Shown piece after piece: positions 1,529-17,317 of a DNA stretch of 24,000 bases. Origin of the DNA: Shewanella decolorationis S12 (GTDB lineage Bacteria; Pseudomonadota; Gammaproteobacteria; Enterobacterales; Shewanellaceae); NCBI RefSeq assembly GCF_000485795.1, contig NZ_AXZL01000076.1:559895-583894 (forward strand), written 5' to 3'. The notes beneath the pieces were generated by a model, which ran no database searches, was not told the origin of the DNA, and was given only the letters and a program-made list of their open reading frames with translations. The position numbers were made by a program, and so were the translations under genes. Position 1 is the stretch's first letter. Each line of letters begins with the position of its first letter.

Positions 1529-2521
1529 ATGCAGACTCTTGCCCAGCACTTAACCTCAAAGGCAGTGAACGAATCCCTCGCGCAACTGATTTTGACCTTA
1601 GCCGACACCTCCAAAGCCATCAGCCATGCCGTGCGCCACGGTGCCTTAGCTGGCGTGTTAGGCGCGACCGAACAGGAAAACGTGCAAGGTGAAACCCAGA
1701 AAAAACTGGATATCATCACCAACGATATGCTCAAAGATGCATTAAAAGCCGACGGTACAGTGCGCGGCTTAGCCTCAGAGGAAGAAGATCATGTGGTTGA
1801 AGTCAGCGCCAATGGTCAATATCTGGTGTGTTTCGACCCTTTAGATGGTTCATCGAATATCGATATCAACTCGCTGGTCGGCACCATTTTCTCTGTCCTG
1901 CCCGCCCCTGCTGGCGAGCTGACTGAAACGAGCTTTTTACAATCTGGCCGCAATCAGTTAGCCGCAGGTTATGTGCTCTACGGCCCATCAACCATGCTCG
2001 CGCTCACCACAGGCCAAGGCGTGCAACTCTTTACCTTGCACCCAGAAACCAACGAATTTTTACTGACCAACGCGGCCATGAGCATCAGCCCAGACACCCA
2101 AGAGTTCGCCATTAACATGTCGAACCAACGTTTTTGGGAAGCGCCAATGCAGACCTATATCGCCGATTTACTGCTAGGCAAAATTGGCCCGCGCGAAAAA
2201 TCCTTCAACATGCGCTGGATTGCCGCCATGGTGGGTGACGTGCACCGCGTACTTTCTCGCGGCGGTATCTTTACTTACCCAACCGACAATAAAGATCCGA
2301 AAAAGCCATACAAGCTGCGTTTAATGTACGAAGCCAACCCAATGGCCCTTTTAGTCGAGCAAGCTGGCGGTAAAGCCTCTACCGGTTATGAAACCATTCT
2401 GGATATTCAACCAACGCAAATTCACCAACGCGTTGCTGTTATCCTCGGTAGCGCCAATGAAGTGGACGCTTGCCTAAGCTACCATGGTTTGGACTATAGC
2501 GAAGAACCCAATCTGGACTAA
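1529..2521 (+). CDS. fbp: Fructose-1,6-bisphosphatase class 1
   Basis: 330-aa ORF. It carries the class-1 FBPase metal-binding block [11 protein letters not shown] and the C-terminal [24 protein letters not shown] block. Length is typical. A terminator hairpin follows. Confidence 0.95.
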
Positions 2522-2552
2522 GCCGAATCGCTTACATCTTGATTTCTATGAT

Positions 2553-2582
2553 AAAAGCCACTGACCACAGTGGCTTTTTTGT
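2553..2582 (+). terminator. Rho-independent terminator of fbp
   Basis: Stem gccactg (2557-2563), loop acca, stem cagtggc (2568-2574), then a T6 run. An A-run precedes the stem. Confidence 0.7.
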
Positions 2583-2610
2583 TGTCGCGGAATGCGACAA
2601 TTTGAGTTTT
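2582..2610 (+). terminator. Second hairpin directly after the fbp terminator (possible tandem terminator)
   Basis: ttgtcgc (2582-2588), loop ggaat, gcgacaa (2594-2600), followed by tttgagtttt. Confidence 0.35.
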
Positions 2611-2633
2611 GATGCGGCTTTACCGCCGGAGTC

Positions 2634-2682
2634 ATTGCGGCCTAACGGCCGAGGTGAATCAAGATCGTGGGGCTTCACCCTC
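2634..2682 (+). repeat. REP-like ~50-nt hairpin unit, copy U1 (degenerate)
   Basis: attgcggcctaacggccgaggtgaatcaagatcgtggggcttcaccctca. It shares the cggcc-N4-ggccg hairpin and the gtgggg..cttc..accc module with the units at 2748, 5741, 5859 and 5934. Confidence 0.7.
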
Positions 2683-2747
2683 AATCAATTGTGATGATTT
2701 GTTTGGTGTATCACTAACAAAGTTATCGCTGTGAATCGCGATTAGAA

Positions 2748-3038
2748 ATTGCGGCCTTACGGCCGAGATGAATCAAAGTCGTGGGTCTTCAACCCACACC
2801 CGACCAAGAGGGGATCAACAGCAATTCCCTCTTGGATCTCCCTTGCCGCCCCTAGCGAAGTTACATGCATTAGAGACTGGCCTTGGTCTTATGGATAAAT
2901 TGCTATCGCTTCCGAAGGATGCGTCCCTGCACCTGCGAAAGCTAGCCGGTCATCCATGACCGGACTCACGCAATTTATTCCAACGCCCCGCGGCAACTTC
3001 GCAGGGGAAGGTGAACTGCTGGTGTATTGGTGTTGGCT
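2748..3038 (+). repeat. Long (~290 bp) structured repeat, copy L; its outer 60 nt form REP-like unit U2. Candidate ncRNA or ssDNA-structure element.
   Basis: Aligns end to end with the reverse complement of 5506-5797, at roughly 85-90 % identity by eye. The copies differ by compensatory changes in three hairpins. They also share perfectly identical 69-nt and ~47-nt blocks. Confidence 0.85.
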
Positions 3039-3163
3039 GCGGTTAACTGAAAAAGATATACATGTTTCATCTTTGAAGAACATTAACACAAAAGTTTAAT
3101 AGATGGATGTAATTGATTATGCGATACTTTAGGTAACGTAGAAAACTCTAACTGGATTAATGA

Positions 3164-4204
3164 ATGTCTTCAGCAGCAACTGTACCTTCAACAGCTACGC
3201 CTACTAAACAACAGGTATTGTTGAAAGGATTAGAAAGCACAGGTGAGCAATCTTTTGCTCGTGTAGTCGGAGCGAATTACGGCTTCCGCATTTCTAATCG
3301 CTGGGAGAAAACTGCTGTTAATATTGACGAAGATATAAAGTCAACGAATAGCAAGTACCAAAATTGTACAGTTGATAATTTAGAGAACCTGGTTGATAGA
3401 GTCATTATATCGGCTAATCATCATTACACTATTTACAAAGTTTCACAGAAAGATGCAATCCAAATCAGGCAGGAATTGTCAGCCTTAGTTGGACAACCTG
3501 TTAACAATATCTTTGCTCAAACTTACCCCGCTTTAGTCGATTTTAACTCCGTTAATCCTGCCGCAGGGGAGTACCTTTGTAAAGTAGCTGATATGGGAGA
3601 TGGAATTGCTTGTATCTTTGCGTCTATAGTAAAAGAATCGCTACCAGGGTATCGAACTATGACTGCTGGAGTGATTACCTCACAGTACTTTCATACTGTC
3701 TTTGTACCTTACGCTGCCGATAGAATCGAGGTTCGGATAACAGATAATGCTCCAACAAGGTACCATGAGAAACACGCTACAGCGATCAAAATTGAATTCC
3801 AAAATATTATTGGTCAAAAAGGAGTTCACTACCCAACCACACAAGTGAATTTCTTTAAATGTATTGAATCTTATTTTAATGATCCAACTTCAGGTCGAAT
3901 AGCGCATGCAATTTTGACTACAGGTCAAGATAGTAAAGATGCGGAATTGAAAAGCTTACGAAGTAAAGATTACTGTGCCAGAACGCAGCAAGTTGTTGAT
4001 AAAAAGAACAACTTCAACTACGTTTGCCGGGCTATTTTACTTAGAAAGCCCTACACAGGAATCAGTACTGGTGAGATGGATATCAGCTTTTTTCCTCACA
4101 AAAACACATGGGAAGCAAATTTTTGCTGGTGCGTACAAGTAAAAAAACCGCAAACAAGTGCAGCTTTGAATTTAATCATTACTGATGCTATAGCGAGAAG
4201 CTAA
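3164..4204 (+). CDS. Hypothetical protein, 346 aa, no family recognised
   Basis: Long ORF in AT-rich DNA, where random ORFs of this size are unlikely. It is first in a tightly packed three-gene set; its stop is 2 nt before the next ATG. The SD is weak. Confidence 0.75.
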   Translation: MSSAATVPSTATPTKQQVLLKGLESTGEQSFARVVGANYGFRISNRWEKTAVNIDEDIKSTNSKYQNCTVDNLENLVDRVIISANHHYTIYKVSQKDAIQIRQELSALVGQPVNNIFAQTYPALVDFNSVNPAAGEYLCKVADMGDGIACIFASIVKESLPGYRTMTAGVITSQYFHTVFVPYAADRIEVRITDNAPTRYHEKHATAIKIEFQNIIGQKGVHYPTTQVNFFKCIESYFNDPTSGRIAHAILTTGQDSKDAELKSLRSKDYCARTQQVVDKKNNFNYVCRAILLRKPYTGISTGEMDISFFPHKNTWEANFCWCVQVKKPQTSAALNLIITDAIARS

Positions 4205-4206
4205 TA

Positions 4207-4620
4207 ATGAGTATTGAAAGTAGGATTAAGGAATATTCGGCTAGACTCGATCGGTTGGCCGAGAGGCTAAAAGATGAGGATTCATCTAATGTCAATATAT
4301 ACAGAAATTTCTTAACTTTTGTTTCTGATAATCCAGATCATACTTACTATCCAATAACTAAGTTACTTACTGCAGCCAAGTGTAAAGATGCCAATCAAGC
4401 TCTAGATGTGGCAAATTATTTCTCAGTGGGTAGAAATGCACTACTAAACGTTACATTTTGCTATTTTGATTTCGATGGCACTGATATCAGAATTGATAGA
4501 GAGTGCTTTATTGATAGCCTCAATAACAATACTCCACCTGTTGAAGATGAGACTGGTTATCCAATAGATAACTTCGAGCCATCGCGACTAGGTTTTTATT
4601 GTAACTTGATTAGCGAGTAA
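4207..4620 (+). CDS. Hypothetical small acidic protein, 137 aa
   Basis: ORF starting 2 nt after the upstream stop (gctaaTAATGagt). Its composition matches the neighbouring ORFs. No domain recognised. Confidence 0.7.
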   Translation: MSIESRIKEYSARLDRLAERLKDEDSSNVNIYRNFLTFVSDNPDHTYYPITKLLTAAKCKDANQALDVANYFSVGRNALLNVTFCYFDFDGTDIRIDRECFIDSLNNNTPPVEDETGYPIDNFEPSRLGFYCNLISE

Positions 4621-4628
4621 GTTGTGAC

Positions 4629-5462
4629 GTGAATAAAACCGATCAAGAGTTGTTTGAAGTTTTAATATCAACGCCAGAAGGTAAAAAGAAGCTTCAACAA
4701 ATAGCGAAATCTTGTGAAAATCATTATAACGCTTTCATAGATGTCCTATATGCTAGACTGGATACTATCTTTAAAAAGCTAGAAGATTCAAGGGATAAGC
4801 ATTTTTCACATGATGAAGATTCAATAACCGGAGTTATTGCTGGGCGGCTTGAAGAAGCCGGATATATTGCTACAGAACAAACAAAGAAAAATGGTGCTGT
4901 AGATTTAACTGTTCAGCTAGGTGATCATAAGTGGATTGCTGAAGCTAAGATAGCTTACTCAAACAGTAAAATATTAGAGGGATTGTTACAACTACTAACT
5001 CGTTATGTCACAAGAGACGAGCACGCTGGATTACTGGTTTATATCAAAAAAAACAATAGTAAAATGGTGTTAGAAGATTGGAAACGTTATTTAGAAGGTT
5101 GTGATGGTCTGAAATCGTACATAGCAAATAAAAATCCTGAAGTTAAAGATGATCTAGAGTGCATTCTTAACAATGTGGAAACTACCGATATTAATAATTT
5201 CTCTTTTAATTCTAAACATAATCTTGTCTGTGGTTCTTCAATTAAAGTCCAACATTTTTGTGCTGATCTTTATTTTAACCCTGCAGACATTAGTGGTAAC
5301 AGCAGTAAAAAACAAAGAAAAGACAATGCTATTAATAATTTAGCGAATTTATATTTTGAGCATTTAGATTCAAATAATAGTTTCGATAGTAATAAGTGTA
5401 TTGAGTTTTTAGAGAGATTGTTTAGAGATTTAGACCCCGACGATATAAGTCTAGACGAATAG
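4629..5462 (+). CDS. Hypothetical protein, 277 aa, with a PD-(D/E)xK nuclease-like core motif
   Basis: GTG start 8 nt after the upstream stop. Residues 60-125 read ...DEDSITGVIAGRLEEAGY...NGAVDLTV...HKWIAEAKIAY...LLQLLTRY. This fits helix-E / strand-D / strand-ExK / helix-Q of restriction-endonuclease-like folds (D92, E105, K107). The C-terminus is Asn/Asp-rich and of low complexity. Confidence 0.7.
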   Translation: MNKTDQELFEVLISTPEGKKKLQQIAKSCENHYNAFIDVLYARLDTIFKKLEDSRDKHFSHDEDSITGVIAGRLEEAGYIATEQTKKNGAVDLTVQLGDHKWIAEAKIAYSNSKILEGLLQLLTRYVTRDEHAGLLVYIKKNNSKMVLEDWKRYLEGCDGLKSYIANKNPEVKDDLECILNNVETTDINNFSFNSKHNLVCGSSIKVQHFCADLYFNPADISGNSSKKQRKDNAINNLANLYFEHLDSNNSFDSNKCIEFLERLFRDLDPDDISLDE

Positions 5463-5505
5463 GCTCCACGAAATATGGGACAGGCACAACTCTTTTGGGA
5501 TTTAG

Positions 5506-5797
5506 AGCCAACACCGATATAACAGAAGTTCACCATCCCCTGCGAAGTTGCCGCGGGGCGTTGGAATAAATTGCGTGAGTCCGGACATGGATGTCCGGCT
5601 AGCTTTCGTAGGTACAGGGACGTTGCCTTCGGAAGCGATAGCAATTTATCCATAAGACCAAGGCCAGTCTCTAATGCATGTAACTTCGCTAGGGACGCCG
5701 GGGGATTTCCAAAAGGGGAACAGGCGTTTTTCCCCTTTTGGTCGGGTGTGGGTTGAAGACCCACGACTTTGATTCACCTCGGCCGTTAGGCCGCAAT
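5506..5797 (-). repeat. Long (~290 bp) structured repeat, copy R (inverted relative to copy L); its outer end forms REP-like unit U3 (5741-5797)
   Basis: The reverse complement aligns with 2748-3038. It begins 44 nt after the stop of the third island ORF. Confidence 0.85.
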
Positions 5798-5858
5798 CAT
5801 TCACATACCCACAGCGATAATCTTGCCAATTCAAACGCTAAACAAACCAGCATTATTA

Positions 5859-5914
5859 TCGGGTGTGGGGTGAAGCCCCACGACTTTGATTTACCTCGGC
5901 CGTAAGGCCGCAAT
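5859..5914 (-). repeat. REP-like hairpin unit, copy U4
   Basis: The reverse complement reads attgcggccttacggccgaggtaaatcaaagtcgtggggcttcaccccacacccga. Its second stem gtgggg/ccccac covaries with gtgggt/acccac in U2 and U3. Confidence 0.75.
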
Positions 5915-5933
5915 CACTAAACTTCTACATAAG

Positions 5934-5984
5934 GTATGGGTTAAAGCCCCACGACTTTGACTTACCTCGGCCGTAAGGCCGCAA
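5934..5984 (-). repeat. REP-like hairpin unit, copy U5, abutting the stop codon of the 5987..6556 gene
   Basis: The reverse complement reads cttgcggccttacggccgaggtaagtcaaagtcgtggggctttaacccatac. It starts 2 nt after the TAG of the upstream minus-strand gene. Confidence 0.7.
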
Positions 5985-5986
5985 GA

Positions 5987-6556
5987 CTAACTTGCAACAC
6001 AAAGATTTTGCTGAATCTTCCAACGACGTTCCATGAGTGGAATCGAAAAACCATAACACACCACTACAATCAAAGGTTGAAGCTGAAAGCTCAACTCAGG
6101 CCATAACATAAAGGCTGCCACGCAAGCCACAGTGCGCACAATCGCATGCACAATGGCCACCTTTTGCGCCGCTAACACGCCGAAAACCAACCACATTAAT
6201 CCTGTTTGTACAGCAAGGGCGAAGGGCAAGGCTAAATAGTTTTCCATAAAAAAGGGAATACTGATGCTAAAGGTTAAAAAACTCATCCCCATCGCAGCCA
6301 AAAACACAGTCTCAAACCAATTACGATCAGCGCTTTTCTTGAAGGAGATATTCTCACCGGTGAGACGTGAGACTCCCATAGCAAGATAGACAATAGAACC
6401 CGTGCCGATAAATGTTGCCATCACCATTTGCGATGCTGGCAAAATAAAACTCAAGATAAACAATAGCGTCCATACAATCATGCCTGATACAGGCATAGCT
6501 AAAGCACGTTTTTGGCGGTATTCGATAAGTTGTTGATCCAGTGATTGATGTTGCAT
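5987..6556 (-). CDS. Hypothetical polytopic inner-membrane protein (~190 aa)
   Basis: Five or six hydrophobic segments. I prefer the internal ATG at 6556 (MQHQSLDQQLIEYRQK...), which is preceded by a strong SD (caAGGAGGcttaatcATG). The track start at 6643 has no such SD. Confidence 0.7.
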   Translation of the reverse strand: MQHQSLDQQLIEYRQKRALAMPVSGMIVWTLLFILSFILPASQMVMATFIGTGSIVYLAMGVSRLTGENISFKKSADRNWFETVFLAAMGMSFLTFSISIPFFMENYLALPFALAVQTGLMWLVFGVLAAQKVAIVHAIVRTVACVAAFMLWPELSFQLQPLIVVVCYGFSIPLMERRWKIQQNLCVAS

Positions 6557-6635
6557 GATTAAGCCTCCTTGTTGGTATGGCTTAAGTATCCCTGCATCCG
6601 CTAAATCACGGCAGTGTGAGTTGTCAGCAATTACG

Positions 6636-6651
6636 GATGACAAATGTCATC
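6636..6651. promoter_or_regulatory. 7-2-7 perfect inverted repeat gatgaca-aa-tgtcatc; candidate operator upstream of the membrane-protein gene
   Basis: Centred ~87 bp upstream of the ATG at 6556 and just upstream of a ttgctgaca (-35-like) string on the minus strand. The 2-nt centre is too small for a hairpin loop, so a dimeric protein site is more likely. Confidence 0.3.
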
Positions 6652-10860: not shown

Positions 10861-11733
10861 CTAACAATATGCCAGTAGCACTAGCTCGAGCCGATGCGCC
10901 AGCAGGTGCTGCTGTTTAATGCTAATACGTTGCTGAGTTAACCAAAGGCTTAATGGCCGCCAATTTTTTAAATCGGCTGACTGTAAATATTTAGCCTGAG
11001 GCGCTTGCTTGGCAAAGTCATCAGCGGAATTAATTTGTGGGATAGCGAGTAACTCGTTGGGCGCAAAAAGCGCTAACTGCGGCACAATACAATGGGTCAT
11101 GCCCGTTAAGGTATGGGCAATTTGCAACCCTGCGGGGTCAAGATCGGTAAAGGCAATAATCGGCATTTTACCTACCATCGCCTGTAAAAACTGTCGCACA
11201 CCAATGGGTGAATGGTGGCCGCTACCACGGTAAATCACCATAACGCGGCTAAGTTCGGCAGGTAGGCGCGCTTGAGTGATGGCATCGAATATATCTAGGT
11301 TTTCAACCACTAAGATGGCGTTAACATTAAGATCATGGCAAAGCTGCTCTGCTTCATCTAAGGGGATACGTAACGAAGAACGCGCAGACATCCCCACGGG
11401 AGATGACTCAAACCCGAGATACTTCAACAAAACATACTCGGCTTCGGGGCGAATACTCGCCAGCTTTTCATTCTGGCTTTGGGCGGACATGGCAATACGG
11501 TCTAGATTAAAATCCAGCGCCTGTAAATCGACGCCCTCTTTTGCCAACACGCCCTGGCGCAGCAACTCAAAATCCCGCGGCGCAAAACACAAATATTTTT
11601 CTGCACCATCCAGCTCGCCCACTTCTAACTCGCGGTAAATCGTTCGCCAATTCGGGGTGAGTTTCACCCTTGGAGAGCGGTTAAGATAAACGCCCTCCAA
11701 GAGTTGCAACTGCTGCCGACCTAGGCGAGCCAT
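10861..11733 (-). CDS. JetD/MksG-like Toprim-domain protein (DUF2220-like), short form of 290 aa
   Basis: AILVVENLDIFDAI (E144), then VMVIYRGSGHH, then IIAFTDLDPAGLQIA (D197, D199). This reproduces the E...DxD Toprim signature and spacing I associate with the Wadjet JetD C-terminal domain. It is the last gene of the operon and overlaps the upstream gene by 13 nt. Confidence 0.6.
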   Translation of the reverse strand: MARLGRQQLQLLEGVYLNRSPRVKLTPNWRTIYRELEVGELDGAEKYLCFAPRDFELLRQGVLAKEGVDLQALDFNLDRIAMSAQSQNEKLASIRPEAEYVLLKYLGFESSPVGMSARSSLRIPLDEAEQLCHDLNVNAILVVENLDIFDAITQARLPAELSRVMVIYRGSGHHSPIGVRQFLQAMVGKMPIIAFTDLDPAGLQIAHTLTGMTHCIVPQLALFAPNELLAIPQINSADDFAKQAPQAKYLQSADLKNWRPLSLWLTQQRISIKQQHLLAHRLELVLLAYC

Positions 11734-12944
11734 AATTCCACATCACGGATAATAAAGTTACCGCTGTAGATCGGATGGGGTTCGCCTAAGGGTTCTAACT
11801 CGAAATAGGCTTTATGCTCATCGGGTAAGCCGTCGTAGCCGCCAATCACTTGATAAATCCAGCTTTCAGCATCCCATGGCAGGGCTTTTTCGGCTAAGTA
11901 GTCGAGCGCCGACTGACGTAAGCCAGACTCAATCACATCAACAAAATAGGCATCTACGGCTTGCTTGAGTGGATTATCAGGAATATCAAAGTCTTCACTC
12001 TGAGTAAGCGACACGCTCACATCCTGCTCACGCACTGTTTCTATCACGCCCTGACGGCTAATCGCCTTGATATGGGCGACGATGTTCATCAGCTCAAACT
12101 CTTGGCTGGCGTTATGCACATCCACAGACGCTGGGGCCAACAGCACTTCGGCGCGATTGAAAAGGCTTGGGATTTCCTTGTGCGACACATGGTCTGCAGG
12201 GCGATAATCAGGATGCAAATCTGTGTACAGTAACCAGCCCTTAAGCAAGCGAGTACGACCACGAATTTGCCTAAAGCGCCCGAGAAGTTCCAGCAACCTA
12301 CCCTGCACCACACTGAGTTCCTGGGCGCAGTCGCTCATGGTCTCCTGCAAGGTCGTGACCAGCAACTTACGCAACTCACGGATATCACCGGCGATTTCAC
12401 CTAATTCGCTAAACTGGAACATCTCCAAACCATTGAGCAATTCAGACACTTGGCTCTGGGCGAGTTCGTTTTCACGGATCTTAGCGTTAATGGTGCCGAC
12501 ATAACCGAACTCGTTGTTGATCCGCCCCCACAACACGCGGATGGAGTAGCGCAAACTGTCGGCAAAGCTATACACATGCTCACTTAAATCAGACAGATAC
12601 GCCTCGGCGGCGCTGTAGTCTGAGCTGTGGCGCGCCTCTTTATAGTGGTCGGCCAAGGTCTTAATGGTGGCGAGCGCCGAGCCGACGTTGGAGTCGATTT
12701 GGCGATTGCGCTCATCACTTAAGCCCTCTTCGAGCAAGGCACGCACCGAGCGTTTAAGGCGCAGCTCTTGGTCTGGCTCTGGGCGCCATAAAATCCCCGC
12801 CTGCTTGAGTTTTTCAACCACGGCGGGATCATGGCTCTCTTCCTTGAGCGAACCGGCCAGATAGGCATCCATAATGATGTCAGCATGGCGACCTAACTGT
12901 TTGAGCAGCTTCACCCCAGCCTGATGTAAGTTACTGCTCATCAC
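11721..12944 (-). CDS. Putative kleisin-like subunit (MksF/JetA-analogous), 407 aa
   Basis: Assignment rests only on position between the KITE-like and Toprim genes, on size, and on predicted helical character. No diagnostic motif was seen. A strong SD (ccAAGGAGGccgtgATG) precedes the start. Confidence 0.35.
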   Translation of the reverse strand: MMSSNLHQAGVKLLKQLGRHADIIMDAYLAGSLKEESHDPAVVEKLKQAGILWRPEPDQELRLKRSVRALLEEGLSDERNRQIDSNVGSALATIKTLADHYKEARHSSDYSAAEAYLSDLSEHVYSFADSLRYSIRVLWGRINNEFGYVGTINAKIRENELAQSQVSELLNGLEMFQFSELGEIAGDIRELRKLLVTTLQETMSDCAQELSVVQGRLLELLGRFRQIRGRTRLLKGWLLYTDLHPDYRPADHVSHKEIPSLFNRAEVLLAPASVDVHNASQEFELMNIVAHIKAISRQGVIETVREQDVSVSLTQSEDFDIPDNPLKQAVDAYFVDVIESGLRQSALDYLAEKALPWDAESWIYQVIGGYDGLPDEHKAYFELEPLGEPHPIYSGNFIIRDVELWLA

Positions 12945-12983
12945 GGCCTCCTTGGTTGATGCTATGCGTTATTGTCCAAGGCA

Positions 12984-13646
12984 TCATAGTAAATCCCGCT
13001 GCGTCGCCGTTTCCGCCTGCGCTTCAAGGCTTAGGCCTTCGGTCTCGTCGATAAAGCGGATCACTTCGTACAGGTAATCCAGCTTGCCGGTGGCGATATA
13101 AATTTGTTTTTCAACGTTAGGGCGCACCAGATAACCAAGCTCCACTAAGCGTTTGAACACTAACTTAATTTGCGCATCACTATTGGTACTGGTTGAGCCG
13201 AATAAGCGGTATTGGCTGAGTTTGGCCAACTGCTCACGAAACGCGGGCGTATCTTCAATTCGGCTTTGCAGCTCTGTTAATCGCACTGGCGCGCCTTCGC
13301 TTAAGGGAGCATCTTGGCCGCTGGCTTCCTGCACTAATACCAGCCACTCCACCATGGGGATAAGTGCCTGACAAATATCCTTAAACTGCGATGAAATCAC
13401 CTTGCGCTCGCTCTCGCCTAACTGCAAATAACCGCAGAAAAACACATCCCCCTCGGCGGCCGAAGCCACGGTGCGATTGATTTGATTAAGATAAGCCTCG
13501 ACCCGCTCGCGGGTACTGTGATTTTTTAATGCGCGCCAGCCATCTTCATTGGTGGTGCGGCAAATAAACTCACCTTTTAGCAAGAGTTCGATAATGGCGC
13601 CCGTGCCGACTAATACGGTTTGGTTTGACTCATTCATGGCACTCAT
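12984..13646 (-). CDS. MksE/JetB-like (KITE-type) subunit, 220 aa
   Basis: The N-terminal pattern IIELLLKGEFICRTTNEDGWRALKNHSTRERVEAYLNQI...AAEGDVFFCGYL resembles the LLKG-x-hh...W..L....V..Y...G.aF pattern I recall for DUF4194/MksE proteins. Its ATG shares one base with the stop of the SMC-like gene (TAATG). Confidence 0.5.
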   Translation of the reverse strand: MSAMNESNQTVLVGTGAIIELLLKGEFICRTTNEDGWRALKNHSTRERVEAYLNQINRTVASAAEGDVFFCGYLQLGESERKVISSQFKDICQALIPMVEWLVLVQEASGQDAPLSEGAPVRLTELQSRIEDTPAFREQLAKLSQYRLFGSTSTNSDAQIKLVFKRLVELGYLVRPNVEKQIYIATGKLDYLYEVIRFIDETEGLSLEAQAETATQRDLL

Positions 13647-16600
13647 TAGATGGCCTCCTTGCTCAGGCGTTTACTCAACAAATCGGCAATCGGATTGGCT
13701 TTGGGCTTCACCACCTGCAACTTCTTGGTTTGTTTATTAATAATGTAACGGTTCTCGAACAGGTTCAGCACTTCTGACTCTGGGTTCGGGAAGGCGCCTA
13801 ACACGCTGATATTGTTGTTACCACAGGCATCGAAAATCTTCTTCACGTTGGTATGGTGCAGCGTACCCAGCTCGTCGATCGGCCAGTGAATGGTCACATC
13901 GGCACGGCCACGTAGCAAGCGCGTGAATGCCAACAGGAACTTACATAAAATCAGGTAAGCCATACCGTGGCTCGAGGATTCGTTCAGCTGTCTGTCGGTG
14001 CGGATAATCAGGTCGCTATTGCCCTCTTTGAGGCGCAACTCGATTTCCAGCAACTTAGCAATACCGCCGGTTAAGGCCGCGCGGCCAATAATGTCTAAGG
14101 CGCGGCGCATACTGTTGGTGTATTCCTCATCGGGCAGACCATTAAAGCCGTCGGCCTTCCATTGTTTGAAGGCTTTAACGAATTGCTCAAGCTCAGGCCA
14201 AAACTCTAATTCGCTGATCTTAGAGCGAATGCGGACCGCAGATTCCGATACGCCATCGAGGAATAACTCTTCGCCCACTTCGCGGGTAATACGCGCACTC
14301 TGGGAGGCGATTCGACGATCGATATCGGCAAGTACATCGTAGAAGGCGGTTAAATCGACCCCGAAGATCCGTCCCTGTTCACGCAGCGCCATAATCGATT
14401 GCGGCACCATCACATTGAGTAACTGTTCTAGCTGCGGCACAAGCTTGCGGTAATCCAACAGGCGAATACCTTTGTCGTTGATAAAGCTCGACTCTTCACG
14501 GGCGCGCTCCCAAGTCTCGGCTAAACCTGAGCCTGACTTGCTGGCAATCACAGAGTCGAAATGCTCCACATATTGCTTAACCGAGCCCATCAAATAATCG
14601 CGTTTTAGCAGTAAATCTTCGCCCTGACGCAGGCGCTCACCAAGGCTACCCTGGGCCTCTTCATTGTTGGCGGGCAATTTCAGCTCGGCCAACTTACGCA
14701 TCACGGCGCGCAGTTTAGTTAAGTTTTCAGAGGCTTCAATCTGCGCCGCATCCGAGGCCTTACGCTCGGTCTCGAGTTGTTGGCGGCGGGTCTTCACTTC
14801 TTGAGTCTTGGCTTTAAGCTGCTGATCGATTTCCGAGGCGGCGCGTTTCACGTCGCTTAACTGGGTTTGCAGCTTGGGCTTACGGATAAGCCAAGTGTGT
14901 TGATACCAATCGTCGAAGCGCAATACTTCGCTGCGACGCTGCTCGGCGCGGCTGATTTTGGTTTCAAGCTCACGGATTTGTTGCTTGAGTTTAAGGATAT
15001 TGTCCTCATCCACACCACGGGATTTAAGCTCGTTTTTGTACCAGGTTTCACAGGCTTTTTGCTCGGCCTTAGCGCTTTCGCGGCGGGCGTCGATAGTCGC
15101 CTTGATTTGCCCGAGTTGATTGTCGAGCGCGCCAATGACTTCCTGCCAGTAGGCTTGTTTTTCCATCCGCGCTTCGAGCGCCTGCTCCTTTTGCTCTTCG
15201 AGCCAGAGCTGATGCTGATGCTTAAGCTGCTTTAGCTCGCCATCGAGCTGAGTTAAGCGCTGCTGGGCAAAGGCTTTACGCTCGGCCAGCGCCTTGTTGA
15301 TCTTGTCCTGCTCACTGCGTTTTTCATCGAACAGACGACGTAAATCATCGCGGCTATTTTTGTAAGCCGTGCGGGCAAAGGTGAGTTCACGACTGAGTTT
15401 ATCCAGCTCAACGTTAATCGCCACCAGCAGAGATTCGGCCTCGGCCTGTAATTCCTGCGCGCTTTGCAGAGCCTCTTCGGCCTTGCTTAAACGAATACGC
15501 AGTTCCTGCTCTGAGGCGGCATATTCAGGCACATCGATGGCTTTAAGATCTAAATGCACCCCAAACACAGTGTCGCTCTCGCCCGTGACCGTTGGGTGTA
15601 AATCGGTGCGGTGCAACAACTCGGGGGCAATCACTTTACCCAGACTCTGCTCCCAACCTTGGGCTTCCTTACGCAGGAATTCGAGCAAGGTATGGGACTG
15701 CGGGAACAGCATATGGTGCAGTTCATCGAGCGCGGTTTGGCGCTCGTTAACCCGCAGGCTGGCGATACGCAGCGCTTCGTTAGCTTGGTCGCGTTTGGCG
15801 CGCAGCTTACGCTCATCGCTAGTTAAGCGTTCCACCTTAGCGTTACAGCTTTCTTGCTCTTCGTCGGCGCGGTGAATCCGCTCGTCGAAAATCGCAAGGC
15901 TTAACTTTTCTTCCTCGGTGTAGGTCACACCATCGACACGTAATTTAAGCTCGGCGGCATTGAGTTTGAATTGATATTCCTGCTCGCTAAAGCTTGCCTT
16001 GCCCGCATCCATTTGGCTGCGCCATTGGGCTTCGAGGGCATCGAGATCGGCTCTTGCCACTTCACGCTGTTTGTCGCGCGCTTCGCGTTGCTTGTCTTGG
16101 TCCGCGTGTAAGCCTTCGAGCTCGCGGTTTAACTGCTCGCCAATTTTGCTGCGGCGGGCATTGTAAGCCGCTTCAATATCTTGGTGTTTTTCGGTTTGTA
16201 ACTTATGGCGCTCGCTTAAGTTTTCCATGTCCGCGCGCCAGTTTGGCAGCATGTCCAAGTCAGCCTTAGCTTGCTCAATATTGGCATCTAAAAAGGCGCC
16301 GTGCTGATCTTCAATGGCATCTAACTCATACTCGCACTTAGCCACATCGCCCTTGGCGGCGGATAGGTCGAGGTTTAACTCATCACGCACTTCTTTCCAT
16401 TCGTCATCCAACATTCGAAGCTTTAAATTCAGCTCCTTAGACAAGGTTTGTTGGATCTCTAACCGATCGGCCTCTAAGGTTTCGTCATTGCGATAGCCAC
16501 GGGACAGGCTCGAGAGACGCATCTCGGCGCTGAGCAGTTGGTTAAATTCCTGCTCGAGCTTTTCAAACTCGGGACGAATGACTTCAAAGCCTTGGATTAA

Positions 16601-17317
16601 CTGGCTCTCGCGGATCCACGCCTCGACGCGTTGCGGATTGAGGCGTGAGCTAGGTGGATTTACCCCGTCTTCTTCCAAAATGGCGGCGATCATCGATTTG
16701 ACCGTTTCCATTTTGCCTTCTTTGGAGTGCACCGCCTTGGCGAGTTTTTCGATATGGCGCAGTGAATGCTCACCTTCACACAGGGCAAATTGGCGCGCAT
16801 AGGCTCGCAGTTCGCTACGGTTGCTGCCCGTGCTTAACAAAGTGCGATCGTTTTGAATAATCGCGCGATATTCGCGGGTGTTGAGCAAGTTGGTGGTGGC
16901 TACGCCCTGGCGTTTTAAATCCCGGCCGAGTTCTGCCATGGTGTGGCAGAGAATAGTGTCACCATTTTGCGATTTAATATAATCGCTTAACTCAAAACCT
17001 TTGGCGATAAAGCGGTAGTTCACCCCTTTACCATCACCCGCCGATGCCAGCACGGCTTGATAGAGCAAGCCATCGGCCTTTTGGTATTCGTAAATGATGT
17101 AGCTTGAATCGTGTGGCAAGTACCAACGCTCGAAACTATCGCGGGTTGAAGGCACCACGCGGCTAGGATATTCGCCATAAAATACCGGCACTAAACGTTG
17201 CAGAGTGGTTTTACCCGAGGCGTTAGTACCACAAATATTGGTATGGCCATTGAGGGCGAGTTCCACAACGCCCGGAAGGTGCGTATCAATCAGCACAATA
17301 CGAATCAAGCTTGGCAT
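13646..17317 (-). CDS. SMC/Rad50/MukB-like ABC ATPase with long coiled coils, 1223 aa (DUF3584-like)
   Basis: The Walker A motif GTNASGKTT (res 30-38; nt 17204-17230) was verified by translation. Roughly 600 residues in the middle are E/K/R/Q/L-rich with heptad-like character. The C-terminal head has SSSHGMAYLIL (signature-like) and VTIHWPIDELGTL (Walker B; D1148/E1149 at nt 13871-13876). Confidence 0.8.
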   Translation of the reverse strand: MPSLIRIVLIDTHLPGVVELALNGHTNICGTNASGKTTLQRLVPVFYGEYPSRVVPSTRDSFERWYLPHDSSYIIYEYQKADGLLYQAVLASAGDGKGVNYRFIAKGFELSDYIKSQNGDTILCHTMAELGRDLKRQGVATTNLLNTREYRAIIQNDRTLLSTGSNRSELRAYARQFALCEGEHSLRHIEKLAKAVHSKEGKMETVKSMIAAILEEDGVNPPSSRLNPQRVEAWIRESQLIQGFEVIRPEFEKLEQEFNQLLSAEMRLSSLSRGYRNDETLEADRLEIQQTLSKELNLKLRMLDDEWKEVRDELNLDLSAAKGDVAKCEYELDAIEDQHGAFLDANIEQAKADLDMLPNWRADMENLSERHKLQTEKHQDIEAAYNARRSKIGEQLNRELEGLHADQDKQREARDKQREVARADLDALEAQWRSQMDAGKASFSEQEYQFKLNAAELKLRVDGVTYTEEEKLSLAIFDERIHRADEEQESCNAKVERLTSDERKLRAKRDQANEALRIASLRVNERQTALDELHHMLFPQSHTLLEFLRKEAQGWEQSLGKVIAPELLHRTDLHPTVTGESDTVFGVHLDLKAIDVPEYAASEQELRIRLSKAEEALQSAQELQAEAESLLVAINVELDKLSRELTFARTAYKNSRDDLRRLFDEKRSEQDKINKALAERKAFAQQRLTQLDGELKQLKHQHQLWLEEQKEQALEARMEKQAYWQEVIGALDNQLGQIKATIDARRESAKAEQKACETWYKNELKSRGVDEDNILKLKQQIRELETKISRAEQRRSEVLRFDDWYQHTWLIRKPKLQTQLSDVKRAASEIDQQLKAKTQEVKTRRQQLETERKASDAAQIEASENLTKLRAVMRKLAELKLPANNEEAQGSLGERLRQGEDLLLKRDYLMGSVKQYVEHFDSVIASKSGSGLAETWERAREESSFINDKGIRLLDYRKLVPQLEQLLNVMVPQSIMALREQGRIFGVDLTAFYDVLADIDRRIASQSARITREVGEELFLDGVSESAVRIRSKISELEFWPELEQFVKAFKQWKADGFNGLPDEEYTNSMRRALDIIGRAALTGGIAKLLEIELRLKEGNSDLIIRTDRQLNESSSHGMAYLILCKFLLAFTRLLRGRADVTIHWPIDELGTLHHTNVKKIFDACGNNNISVLGAFPNPESEVLNLFENRYIINKQTKKLQVVKPKANPIADLLSKRLSKEAI

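Follow-up and report, generated by a model that had tools for sequence, protein, structure and literature searches.

A low-GC three-gene operon between convergent Shewanella repeats is a candidate anti-phage defence system

The window analysed here, a 24,000-nt stretch of the Shewanella decolorationis S12 genome, carries three closely packed genes on the + strand, hereafter A, B and C and jointly the triad. Gene A (3164–4204, ATG start) encodes 346 aa, gene B (4207–4620, ATG start) 137 aa and gene C (4629–5462, GTG start) 277 aa, with gaps of 2 nt between A and B and 8 nt between B and C, an arrangement reported in the first-pass annotation and reproduced by the ORF list. Proteins of the locus are on record for this strain as WP_023268702/3, and all three triad proteins are annotated as hypothetical. 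Gene A is preceded by an AT-rich leader (3076–3163, + strand), in which a promoter scan found no consensus sigma-70 promoter. As had been proposed, the block lies between two convergent conserved core genes. On the left, fbp (fructose-1,6-bisphosphatase; 1529–2521, + strand), for which Pfam FBPase and FBPase_C are matched on an identical protein, is followed by a terminator-like hairpin consisting of an 11-pair stem and a T run (2553–2578, + strand). On the right is an ORF for a DUF7010 membrane protein (5987–6643, − strand; Pfam DUF7010). Its longest-ORF start is the TTG at 6643 and its start on record is the ATG at 6556; an exact protein look-up returned the 189-aa ATG form, with Pfam DUF7010, and no exact-match record for the 218-aa TTG-start form. 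The block had also been described as compositionally foreign, and the computed GC content was indeed 0.29–0.43 per 300-nt window inside the block and 0.44–0.53 outside it, with a mean of 0.36 for the cargo compared to 0.48 for the flanks. Searches of the whole window with Rfam at gathering thresholds and with ARAGORN detected no RNA gene and no tRNA, respectively, indicating that the locus is not a tRNA-type integration site.

The mirrored repeats noticed earlier on both sides of the block proved to be two copies of a ~350-nt structured repeat. Three pairs of inverted segments, 2827–3038/5506–5717 (212 nt, 91%), 2748–2829/5716–5797 (82 nt, 89%) and 2718–2733/5810–5825, aligned the two arms, which shared an identical 67-nt core, and shuffled sequences gave 0 matches. 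An nhmmer search with the repeat-family profile recovered the left arm at 2725–3094 (E = 3e-96) and the right arm at 5819–5466 (E = 4e-102). The family profile, together with the inverted repeats, alignments and compensatory pairs, placed the left arm at ~2718–3075 on the + strand with its inner end toward the cargo, and the right arm, in inverted orientation on the − strand, at ~5466–5825, beginning 3–6 nt past the stop codon of C. The block as first delimited (3039–5505) is exactly the interval between the parts of the arms that can be aligned with each other; by the profile-defined arm ends, the true cargo extends over ~3076–5465. In the left arm, the inner ~35 nt depart from the consensus of the family. 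Both modularity and compensatory base changes characterise the arms. Their outer module, a 58-nt hairpin unit, also occurs in lone copies, one on the left at 2634–2680 (+ strand; repeat search) and two on the right at 5859–5916 and 5930–5987 (− strand; repeat search and nhmmer). Outward-reading terminator-like hairpins were found at 2798–2780 (− strand) in the left arm and at 5715–5734 and 5747–5765 (+ strand) in the right arm.

Copies of the repeat were dispersed over 49 stretches, almost all of them from Shewanella; the first-pass annotation had not recognised that the arms belong to such a family with defence cargo. Adjacent copies formed 20 convergent pairs and 0 divergent ones, and in each adjacent pair examined the repeats pointed toward low-GC cargo. 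When left-arm DNA was compared with a plasmid collection, one partial match (78%) was obtained, on a plasmid of Shewanella sp. LC6. An Rfam search of the left arm at an E-value threshold gave a TwoAYGGAY match only, which stemmed from the CAUGGAUG hairpin loop and was rejected as membership because its 28 bits fell short of the gathering score (43). Inspection by eye of 13 pairs of outer arm ends, whose termini are known only approximately and for which an empty site was lacking, showed no direct repeat of the kind left by a target-site duplication.

Comparison of the fbp-to-membrane-gene interval among relatives revealed a variable site, at which the triad is replaced by AbiU, NERD-containing or other cargos. 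Strains with identical flanking proteins carried at least five alternative cargos there, AbiU (E = 9e-203) being present in one whose Fbp protein was identical; in Shewanella, the triad was seen at this site only. Convergent arms enclosed 18 cargos, of which 10 or 11 matched PADLOC models, including Lamassu, PD-Lambda-2, gop-beta-cII, an OLD/AriA-like ATPase, PDC-S20, PDC-S31, PDC-S65, PDC-S67 and a Dsr2 fragment, and at least seven had no PADLOC match. One arm-bounded cassette (L056) contained a RAYT-like HUH protein. A 345-aa protein from another cargo (L072) was tested as a homolog of A and excluded. We conclude that the repeats represent a previously undescribed Shewanella family bracketing exchangeable defence genes, and that the arm pairs probably mark sites of defence-cargo exchange between strains, for which possible modes are considered below.

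Protein C consists of an N-terminal helical region, a nuclease core (residues ~60–140) and a ~135-aa C-terminal domain. The nuclease-like motif noted previously was recovered as E63...D92...E105-x-K107, and residues E63, D64, D92, E105, K107 and Q121 were invariant in 40 homologs with identity down to 29%. In the AF2 model (pLDDT 89.8), the invariant residues mapped onto an alpha-beta-beta-beta-alpha-beta core, with D92, E105 and K107 positioned on strands 93–97 and 100–108 as in a PD-(D/E)xK core, which has its D where strand 2 begins and its (D/E)xK on strand 3. The best Foldseek matches were the Hjc/Hje resolvases, followed by HindIII and OkrAI, with a probability of 0.84–0.95 over ~80 residues, 15–20% identity and all E values above 1e-2. 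Pfam gave no match for C of the window, and the Serratia homolog matched PDDEXK_9 at E = 0.015, short of the Pfam cut-off. Matches were obtained to phrog_9664 in PHROG (1.5e-43) and to the C-terminal domain of the PADLOC model PDC-S54 (9e-6 for C of the window and 3.4e-9 for the Serratia homolog). By motif and modelled topology, C is a PD-(D/E)xK nuclease of predicted activity, with no whole-chain match reaching significance.

Proteins A and B, by comparison, belonged to no recognised family, in agreement with the first-pass annotation. No match was found for A in Pfam, NCBIfam, PADLOC or PDB, nor for B in Pfam, NCBIfam, PADLOC, PHROG or by profile search, and profiles of A, B and C together with a broad A alignment, run against PDB sequences and Pfam, recovered no family. 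No triad protein fell into a housekeeping or metabolic family in the profile and structure searches. A weak PHROG match of A (phrog_12777, 4e-7) was detected. The AF2 model of A (pLDDT 79.5, pTM 0.82) gave nothing below E = 1e-3 in Foldseek searches of PDB and BFVD; weak matches to CENP-N, Whirly, TTM and a phage "exonuclease" had TM-scores of 0.14–0.36 and count as leads. One loop of protein A, extremely conserved and left unplaced by structure prediction, may indicate a new sensing chemistry. No sensor or signalling domain was recognisable in A or B. We propose that A is likely a sensor, possibly a nucleic-acid binder, and that B, whose 16 homologs were each accompanied by A and C, serves as a small adaptor, regulator or inhibitor.

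The triad behaved as a conserved unit. The A-B-C order, kept in at least six genera, was found in V. amylolyticus, A. media, Agarivorans, Photobacterium, Serratia and a PM2-like Vibrio prophage, and hhalign related the triads of these taxa with a probability of 98–100% for all three proteins. Scanning IMG/VR with the C alignment defined a set of 27 contigs carrying a C homolog; 24 of them contained the full triad, its genes mostly overlapping by ~20–30 nt, and 2 further contigs contained A and C with the middle ORF undetected. With the close A alignment as query, no relatives were recovered from IMG/VR. In Aeromonas, where the host GC content is 0.60, that of the triad was still ~0.37. A more distant A and C pair, arranged around a 130-aa middle gene, was present in Stx1a phages of E. 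coli, where it directly adjoins stx1. Most copies reside in prophages, and a search of plasmids with protein A yielded one Pantoea megaplasmid only, so that plasmids are not the vehicle of this system.

Homologues also lay in defence islands elsewhere. In Serratia and in 12 of 26 IMG/VR cases, the triad was inserted between the P2 portal gene gpQ and gpA, a position known as a defence hotspot (Rousset et al. 2022, PMC9122126); in Agarivorans, it lay in a P4-like integrase/AlpA island, adjacent to a type IV restriction enzyme of AspBHI/Mrr type; and further copies were found at prophage ends. Together with the Shewanella arm sites, these positions locate the triad in defence islands and hotspots. 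In P4 hotspots, 6 of 8 randomly picked loci of unknown genes gave phage protection (PMC13586616). Against the defence reading, cargo other than defence genes, for example partition systems and toxins, is found in P2 hotspots too (PMC9122126), and 15–32% only of the unknown proteins there were predicted to be antiviral (PMC13586616).

We consider it reasonably likely, mainly on grounds of guilt by association, that the triad is a single horizontally moving operon encoding an undescribed defence system against phages or other mobile elements. The view of the block as a horizontally acquired, nuclease-containing operon and defence-type candidate is strengthened by co-occurrence of the three genes, by hotspot context and by variability of the site, and each of the refuting conditions set for it that computation could address turned out favourable to it. 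In the mechanism that we propose, C would be the effector, a PD-(D/E)xK DNA nuclease with a Hjc-type E...D...ExK active site. Because the genes abut or overlap, A and B would be made in fixed proportion with C and would probably keep it inactive until infection is sensed. Once activated, C would cleave the DNA of the phage, of the host or of both, leading to direct protection or abortive infection. Searches of the literature found no measured phage or plasmid protection by the triad, and nothing on the triad itself or on Shewanella repeat-flanked defence cassettes or MITEs.

The combination of a nuclease with a small partner in a tightly coupled module could alternatively mean that C is a toxin and B, perhaps with A, its antitoxin, the module serving mainly to stabilise its carrier, be it a prophage, a satellite or a cassette, rather than to exclude phages. 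The presence of a CdiA-CT PD-(D/E)xK toxin among the structural matches of C and the confinement of the triad to mobile elements point in this direction. Type II toxin-antitoxin systems possess a small cognate antitoxin, usually with a DNA-binding domain, that autoregulates the operon. However, family and profile searches detected no recognisable DNA-binding or antitoxin-type domain in B, and a third gene that is both the largest and strictly conserved (A, ~350 aa) is unusual for a toxin-antitoxin pair. We therefore regard an addiction module as unlikely, with the qualification that a toxin-antitoxin module may at the same time act in defence by abortive infection.

The prevalence of prophage-borne copies, the PHROG matches of both A and C and the resemblance of C, in its closest fold, to a Holliday-junction resolvase would also be expected if the triad were an accessory module of the phages themselves, acting in recombination or junction resolution, in anti-defence or as a selfish cassette with a homing nuclease, with the Shewanella copy left as a prophage remnant. 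However, the triad occupied accessory or moron positions (the P2 tin/old locus and prophage ends) and not the replication and recombination modules, and it was present outside prophages as well, in the P4-like island and in the Shewanella cassette, for which defence genes are the alternative cargo. It was also rare and patchy: the distant version occurred in 23 of 5426 complete E. coli genomes, and the A family comprised only 41 clusters among 1.84 billion representatives. This rarity and patchiness fit accessory defence better than a core phage function, and we rate the phage's own use of the triad as slightly less probable still than addiction.

It is improbable that the operon is decaying foreign DNA with no current role. 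The empty promoter scan upstream of A and the uniformly hypothetical annotation would be compatible with decay, but all three ORFs are intact, the proteins retain a mean column identity of 69–80% with many invariant residues in the close branch, and gene order and overlaps are kept across genera. The location of the triad exactly between long inverted repeats, and the use of a PD-(D/E)xK nuclease by some transposons, such as TnsA of Tn7, would suggest that the triad itself mobilises the element, as a nuclease-type transposase with helpers acting on the arms, yet this is effectively refuted by the Vibrio and Aeromonas triads, which lack such arms, and by ~19 other arm-bounded cassettes with unrelated cargo and no triad.

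Returning to the defence reading, in Shewanella the operon is one among many alternative cargos placed between two convergent ~350-nt repeats. The arm hairpins, as outward-pointing terminators, would shield the adjoining core genes against transcription coming from the cassette. Cargo might be exchanged by a trans-acting enzyme of HUH/RAYT type recognising the folded single-stranded arms or, alternatively, by homologous recombination. We tentatively suggest that two novelties are nested here: the triad as a new anti-phage system with a sensor and adaptor of no recognisable family, sparsely distributed in P2-like and other prophages including those of Stx1a phages, and the Shewanella arm pairs as an undescribed carrier that insulates defence cargos of 1–5 kb and may mediate their exchange by a dedicated mechanism. 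If the triad does protect against phages, it would constitute a new defence family with two proteins outside known families, and the version in Stx1a phages could influence which phages superinfect those lysogens. The arm family bears on the open question of how small defence systems are swapped without a recombinase of their own, for which the fbp/DUF7010 site offers a concrete system of study, and the repeats provide a simple tag by which more defence genes of unknown type can be sought in Shewanella sequences.

Comparison with catalogued defence systems was consistent with the earlier statement that none fits the 346/137/277-aa composition. In PADLOC-DB v2.0.0, A and B had no match at E ≤ 1, C matched the candidate PDC-S54 alone, through its nuclease domain, and no PADLOC Old match was obtained for A, B or C. 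None of the newly named P4-hotspot systems (PMC13586616), compared by description, fits the triad. The closest parallel in layout is Rst_3HP, likewise three genes without a clear predicted domain in the P2 gpQ–gpA hotspot, which was described as "hp + hp + hp" and shown to defend against phage P1 (Rousset et al. 2022, PMC9122126). Its proteins differ in size (333/359/227 aa), and a relationship was excluded by BLASTP, with nothing better than E = 0.07, and by hhalign of the A, B and C family alignments against Hp1-3 (E. coli E1114, pFR109), with probabilities of 0.1–1.5% for all pairings. PDC-S54 shares the nuclease domain of C (profile positions ~250–379 of 410) but is a single larger protein of which the C-terminal third alone matches, provides no counterpart to A or B, and is itself a candidate system that no paper in the literature searched mentions. 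At the P2 old/tin locus and the cos-proximal P2/P4 hotspot, the occupants are small, patchy cassettes, and in P2-like prophages the triad lies at the same position; P2 Tin was rejected as a relative, there being no homology.

Protein C shares with Hjc/Hje and type II restriction enzymes the alpha-beta-beta-beta-alpha-beta core and the E...D...ExK motif, and its 13-residue D-to-E spacing is that of Hjc. It differs from these enzymes in the extra N-terminal helical region, in the ~135-aa C-terminal domain and in being encoded within a three-gene operon.

The arms have their nearest counterparts in MITE-flanked composites. In integron mobilisation units, two ~288-bp MITEs flank the cargo, and REPIN/RAYT systems are comparable. 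The Shewanella cassettes resemble such composites in having two inverted, non-coding, hairpin-rich repeats of ~300–350 nt around a cargo without a transposase, the repeats being dispersed in the genomes. They differ in that one site holds five different cargos, rather than one unit being found at several sites, and in that the arms are modular with compensatory changes and the cargo is strongly enriched in defence genes. Chromosomal integrons and the "minimal mobile elements" of Neisseria involve small, promoter-poor cassettes swapped at fixed sites with conserved flanks, and defence genes are frequent cargo of sedentary integrons; the Shewanella arm cassettes are likewise small, promoter-poor and swapped at a fixed site. 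Integron cassettes, however, carry directly oriented attC sites of ~60–130 nt and form an array next to intI and attI. No integrase was seen adjoining the Shewanella arms in the loci examined; these arms are inverted and ~350 nt long, and the cassettes that they enclose are single and scattered rather than arrayed.

The first-pass annotation had proposed, from the sequence alone, a foreign three-gene defence cassette at 3039–5505. ORF calling confirmed three packed plus-strand genes, A (3164–4204, 346 aa), B (4207–4620, 137 aa) and C (4629–5462, 277 aa, GTG start), separated by 2 nt (A/B) and 8 nt (B/C) and hereafter called the triad (RefSeq proteins of this Shewanella decolorationis S12 locus, WP_023268702 and WP_023268703). 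The block lies between two convergent core genes, fbp (1529–2521, +) on the left and a DUF7010 membrane protein gene (5987–6556/6643, −) on the right. Its GC content in 300-nt windows was 0.29–0.43 compared to 0.44–0.53 beyond it (mean 0.36 in the cargo versus 0.48 in the flanks), in agreement with the foreign character originally ascribed to it. The mirrored repeats noticed around the block proved to be long inverted copies of one repeat family, the arms, and 3039–5505 corresponds to the span between their alignable parts.

The nuclease-like motif reported for the third protein was borne out by the homologs and the model of C. E63, D64, D92, E105, K107 and Q121 were invariant across 40 homologs with identity down to 29%, and in a confident AlphaFold model (pLDDT 89.8, pTM 0.85) they sit on the elements of a PD-(D/E)xK core spanning residues 63–139 (helix 63–76, strands 80–83, 93–97 and 100–108, helix 112–126, strand 132–139). 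The top Foldseek matches were two resolvases from archaea, Hje and Hjc, with probabilities of 0.84–0.95 over ~80 residues; HindIII, OkrAI and a CdiA-CT toxin came next, and no match had an E-value below 1e-2. C matched phrog_9664 (1.5e-43) and the C-terminal third of the PADLOC candidate PDC-S54. On the strength of motif and topology, and with no significant database match to a nuclease, we accept C as a putative PD-(D/E)xK nuclease.

A and B, described at first pass as belonging to no recognised family, indeed matched nothing in Pfam, NCBIfam or PDB sequences, nor in PADLOC, whose PADLOC-DB v2 contains no model for either protein. A weakly matched phrog_12777 (4e-7), like phrog_9664 a PHROG family of unknown function. 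Its model (pLDDT 79.5, pTM 0.82) has a helical N-terminal part followed by a sheet-rich part and gave no Foldseek match below 1e-3 against PDB and BFVD, weak matches to CENP-N, Whirly, TTM and a phage “exonuclease” being leads only. Residues 249–288 of A (window 3908–4027) form the best-conserved stretch of the family, with R273 invariant even across a broad alignment of 42 sequences, yet their pLDDT was ~40; this stretch may need a partner or a substrate in order to fold. The families are small: a profile search of 1.84 billion representative proteins returned only 41 relatives of A at E ≤ 0.001, and a word-indexed search of 5.8 billion proteins returned 24 relatives of A, 16 of B and 41 of C.

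The A-B-C order was kept in other hosts, with copies located in defence hotspots. Triads were found at a prophage end in Vibrio amylolyticus (349/143/289 aa), in an integrase island of Aeromonas media (348/137/281 aa, triad GC ~0.37 in a host of 0.60), in a P4-like integrase/AlpA island of Agarivorans adjoining an AspBHI/Mrr-type enzyme (346/137/269 aa), in P2-like prophages of Photobacterium, adjoining the CI repressor (349/134/278 aa), and Serratia marcescens, in the portal-gpA interval (354/148/267 aa), and beside the integrase of a PM2-like temperate Vibrio phage (339/140/276 aa). All three proteins of the distant copies were homologous by hhalign (probability 98–100%). Among 27 IMG/VR contigs having a C homolog, 24 carried the full triad, and two more had A and C with a middle ORF that escaped detection; in most cases the genes overlapped, an arrangement that speaks for coupled translation. 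Of 26 IMG/VR copies, twelve were placed between the P2-type portal gene (gpQ) and gpA, a P2 defence hotspot housing old and tin according to Rousset et al. (PMC9122126). A more distant version (350/130/221 aa) lies between antiterminator Q and stx1A in Stx1a-converting phages (LC567825; L013, a comparison locus with its own coordinates, 2463–4570): its first protein is homologous to A (probability 99.6% when a broader profile was used) and its third to C, the middle protein reaching only 29% hhalign probability against B. Of 5426 complete E. coli genomes, 23 carried this cassette, for which RefSeq lists three hypothetical proteins. Upstream of the A. media triad (locus L003, 3917–9349), a weak phage-integrase-family gene precedes ORFs of 562, 704 and 147 aa, which lie in the same island as the triad, had no Pfam match and may represent a mobility module or another, uncharacterised system.

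The arms at 2718–3075 (+) and 5466–5825 (−) form the inverted pairs 2827–3038/5506–5717 (212 nt, 91%), 2748–2829/5716–5797 and 2718–2733/5810–5825, and are 92% identical when aligned, with compensatory differences within hairpins. A profile built from family copies matched the window at 2725–3094 (+) and 5819–5466 (−). An arm-derived pattern found 49 stretches in 185,579 species-representative genomes, nearly all from Shewanella (xiamenensis, cutis, hafniensis, morhuae, profunda, glacialipiscicola, oncorhynchi, HN-41 and related MAGs). The ~350-nt unit is modular and hairpin-rich, each module having alternative sequence types, and of the 29 pairs predicted by RNAalifold, 10 show double compensatory changes. 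Where copies neighbour one another, 20 arrangements were convergent and 12 same-oriented (often fragments), with no divergent case; at unpaired arms the inner-side DNA was lower in GC (0.39 versus 0.46). Short-read assemblies stop ~100 nt inside the arms, as expected of a dispersed repeat, and no target-site duplication was visible at 13 pairs of outer arm ends. Terminator-like hairpins in the outer portion of both arms read outward from the cargo, suggesting that the arms may act as insulators. The outer module of each arm is a 58-nt double-hairpin unit (CGGCC...GGCCG and GTGGG...CCCAC) whose second hairpin and T run score as a terminator; solitary copies adjoin the arms at 2634–2680, 5859–5916 and 5930–5987. 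Inside the left arm, a sub-threshold Rfam TwoAYGGAY match (2907–2966, −; 28.3 bits, gathering score 43) was driven by a CCGGUCAUGGAUGACCGG hairpin that carries compensatory changes between arm copies.

Convergent arm pairs enclosed 1.0–4.7 kb of cargo with GC of 0.31–0.43, mostly recognised by PADLOC as defence genes: AbiU (L015, 9e-203), PD-Lambda-2 B and C (L024), Lamassu LmuA and LmuB (L030), PDC-S65/caspase (L037), an AriA/OLD/GajA-like ATPase (L044), PDC-S20/PifA-like (L045), gop-beta-cII (L064), a Dsr2 SIR2 fragment (L065), PDC-S31 (L048) and PDC-S67 (L032). Seven others (L027, L047, L051, L052, L053, L072 and L073) had no PADLOC match, apart from a weak one of the L072 NERD protein to PglW (4e-5). 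Their proteins, including ones of 255, 164, 289 and 343+108 aa and an 878-aa trypsin-STAND protein (L053) that looks defence-like, are by position further candidate defence genes. Comparison of the site in related Shewanella showed that the fbp/DUF7010 interval is a swap site holding at least five alternative cargos between convergent arms: the triad, AbiU (L015), a TM-TPR protein with a small lipoprotein-like ORF (L052), proteins of 345 and 68 aa with the NERD protein (L072), and proteins of 125 and 228 aa (L073). Four of the five come from strains that share an identical Fbp or DUF7010 protein with the window.

At locus L034 (2180–2834), 211 nt separate a full arm from an inverted one that follows it and of which only the outer ~95 nt are present; this resembles a cassette that has collapsed or been deleted, and might help to establish the route of cargo loss. 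Another cassette, from Shewanella cutis (L056), encodes at 5176–6153 a RAYT-like protein of 325 aa and HUH/Y1 type, which contains the motifs HLHVVL and YVDLNPIRA and matched NCBIfam REP_Tyr_transpos below the cut-off (4.6e-10); it is no more than a lead for a possible enzyme mobilising the hairpin-rich arms. About 5 kb from the triad cassette, a minus-strand cluster at 10861–17317 (290, 407, 220 and 1223 aa) weakly matched PADLOC JetD (1e-5) and JetC (9e-5), its 290-aa protein being Pfam DUF7281/TOP6A-Toprim, and looks like a distant, putative Wadjet/JetABCD-type system.

Taken together, the triad is a foreign, coupled operon with a putative nuclease, whose copies occupy defence hotspots on mobile elements of several types, and these independent lines of genomic context support the candidate defence interpretation. 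We consider a defence function of the triad probable. An empirical prior favours this reading: at P4 hotspots, six of eight randomly picked loci of unknown genes gave phage protection; the predicted antiviral share of unknown P2 hotspot proteins was lower, 15–32% (PMC13586616). A, B and C would assemble as one complex in which C, a DNA-cutting effector, is kept inactive, A senses infection, possibly via nucleic acid, and B acts as an adaptor or inhibitor; once activated, C would cut the DNA of the phage, of the host or of both. We hold this division of labour with less confidence than the defence function. A toxin–antitoxin or addiction module appears unlikely, and such a role would be compatible with abortive infection rather than exclusive of it. 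The triad might instead serve the phage in recombination, anti-defence or homing, which we judge less likely still, and decaying DNA is a highly improbable reading. Mobility machinery of the arms is effectively excluded, since the Vibrio and Aeromonas triads have no inverted arms in their flanks and other arm-bounded cassettes carry different cargo.

By description, the nearest named system to the defence operon proposed here is Rst_3HP, three domain-less proteins of 333/359/227 aa from the P2 hotspot, none of which resembles A, B or C; P2 Tin is likewise unrelated. Literature searches returned nothing on the triad or PDC-S54, and the triad is a candidate new family among hotspot-borne, nuclease-containing defence operons. 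For the arms, we take the closest known kinds to be MITE-flanked composite elements and REPIN/RAYT systems, the cassettes of integrons, and the minimal mobile elements of Neisseria. Unlike these, the Shewanella arms are long, structured and inverted, show no visible target duplication, and enclose a cargo that changes at a fixed site and is rich in defence genes. This repeat-bounded architecture seems undescribed and may be of more interest than the triad itself.
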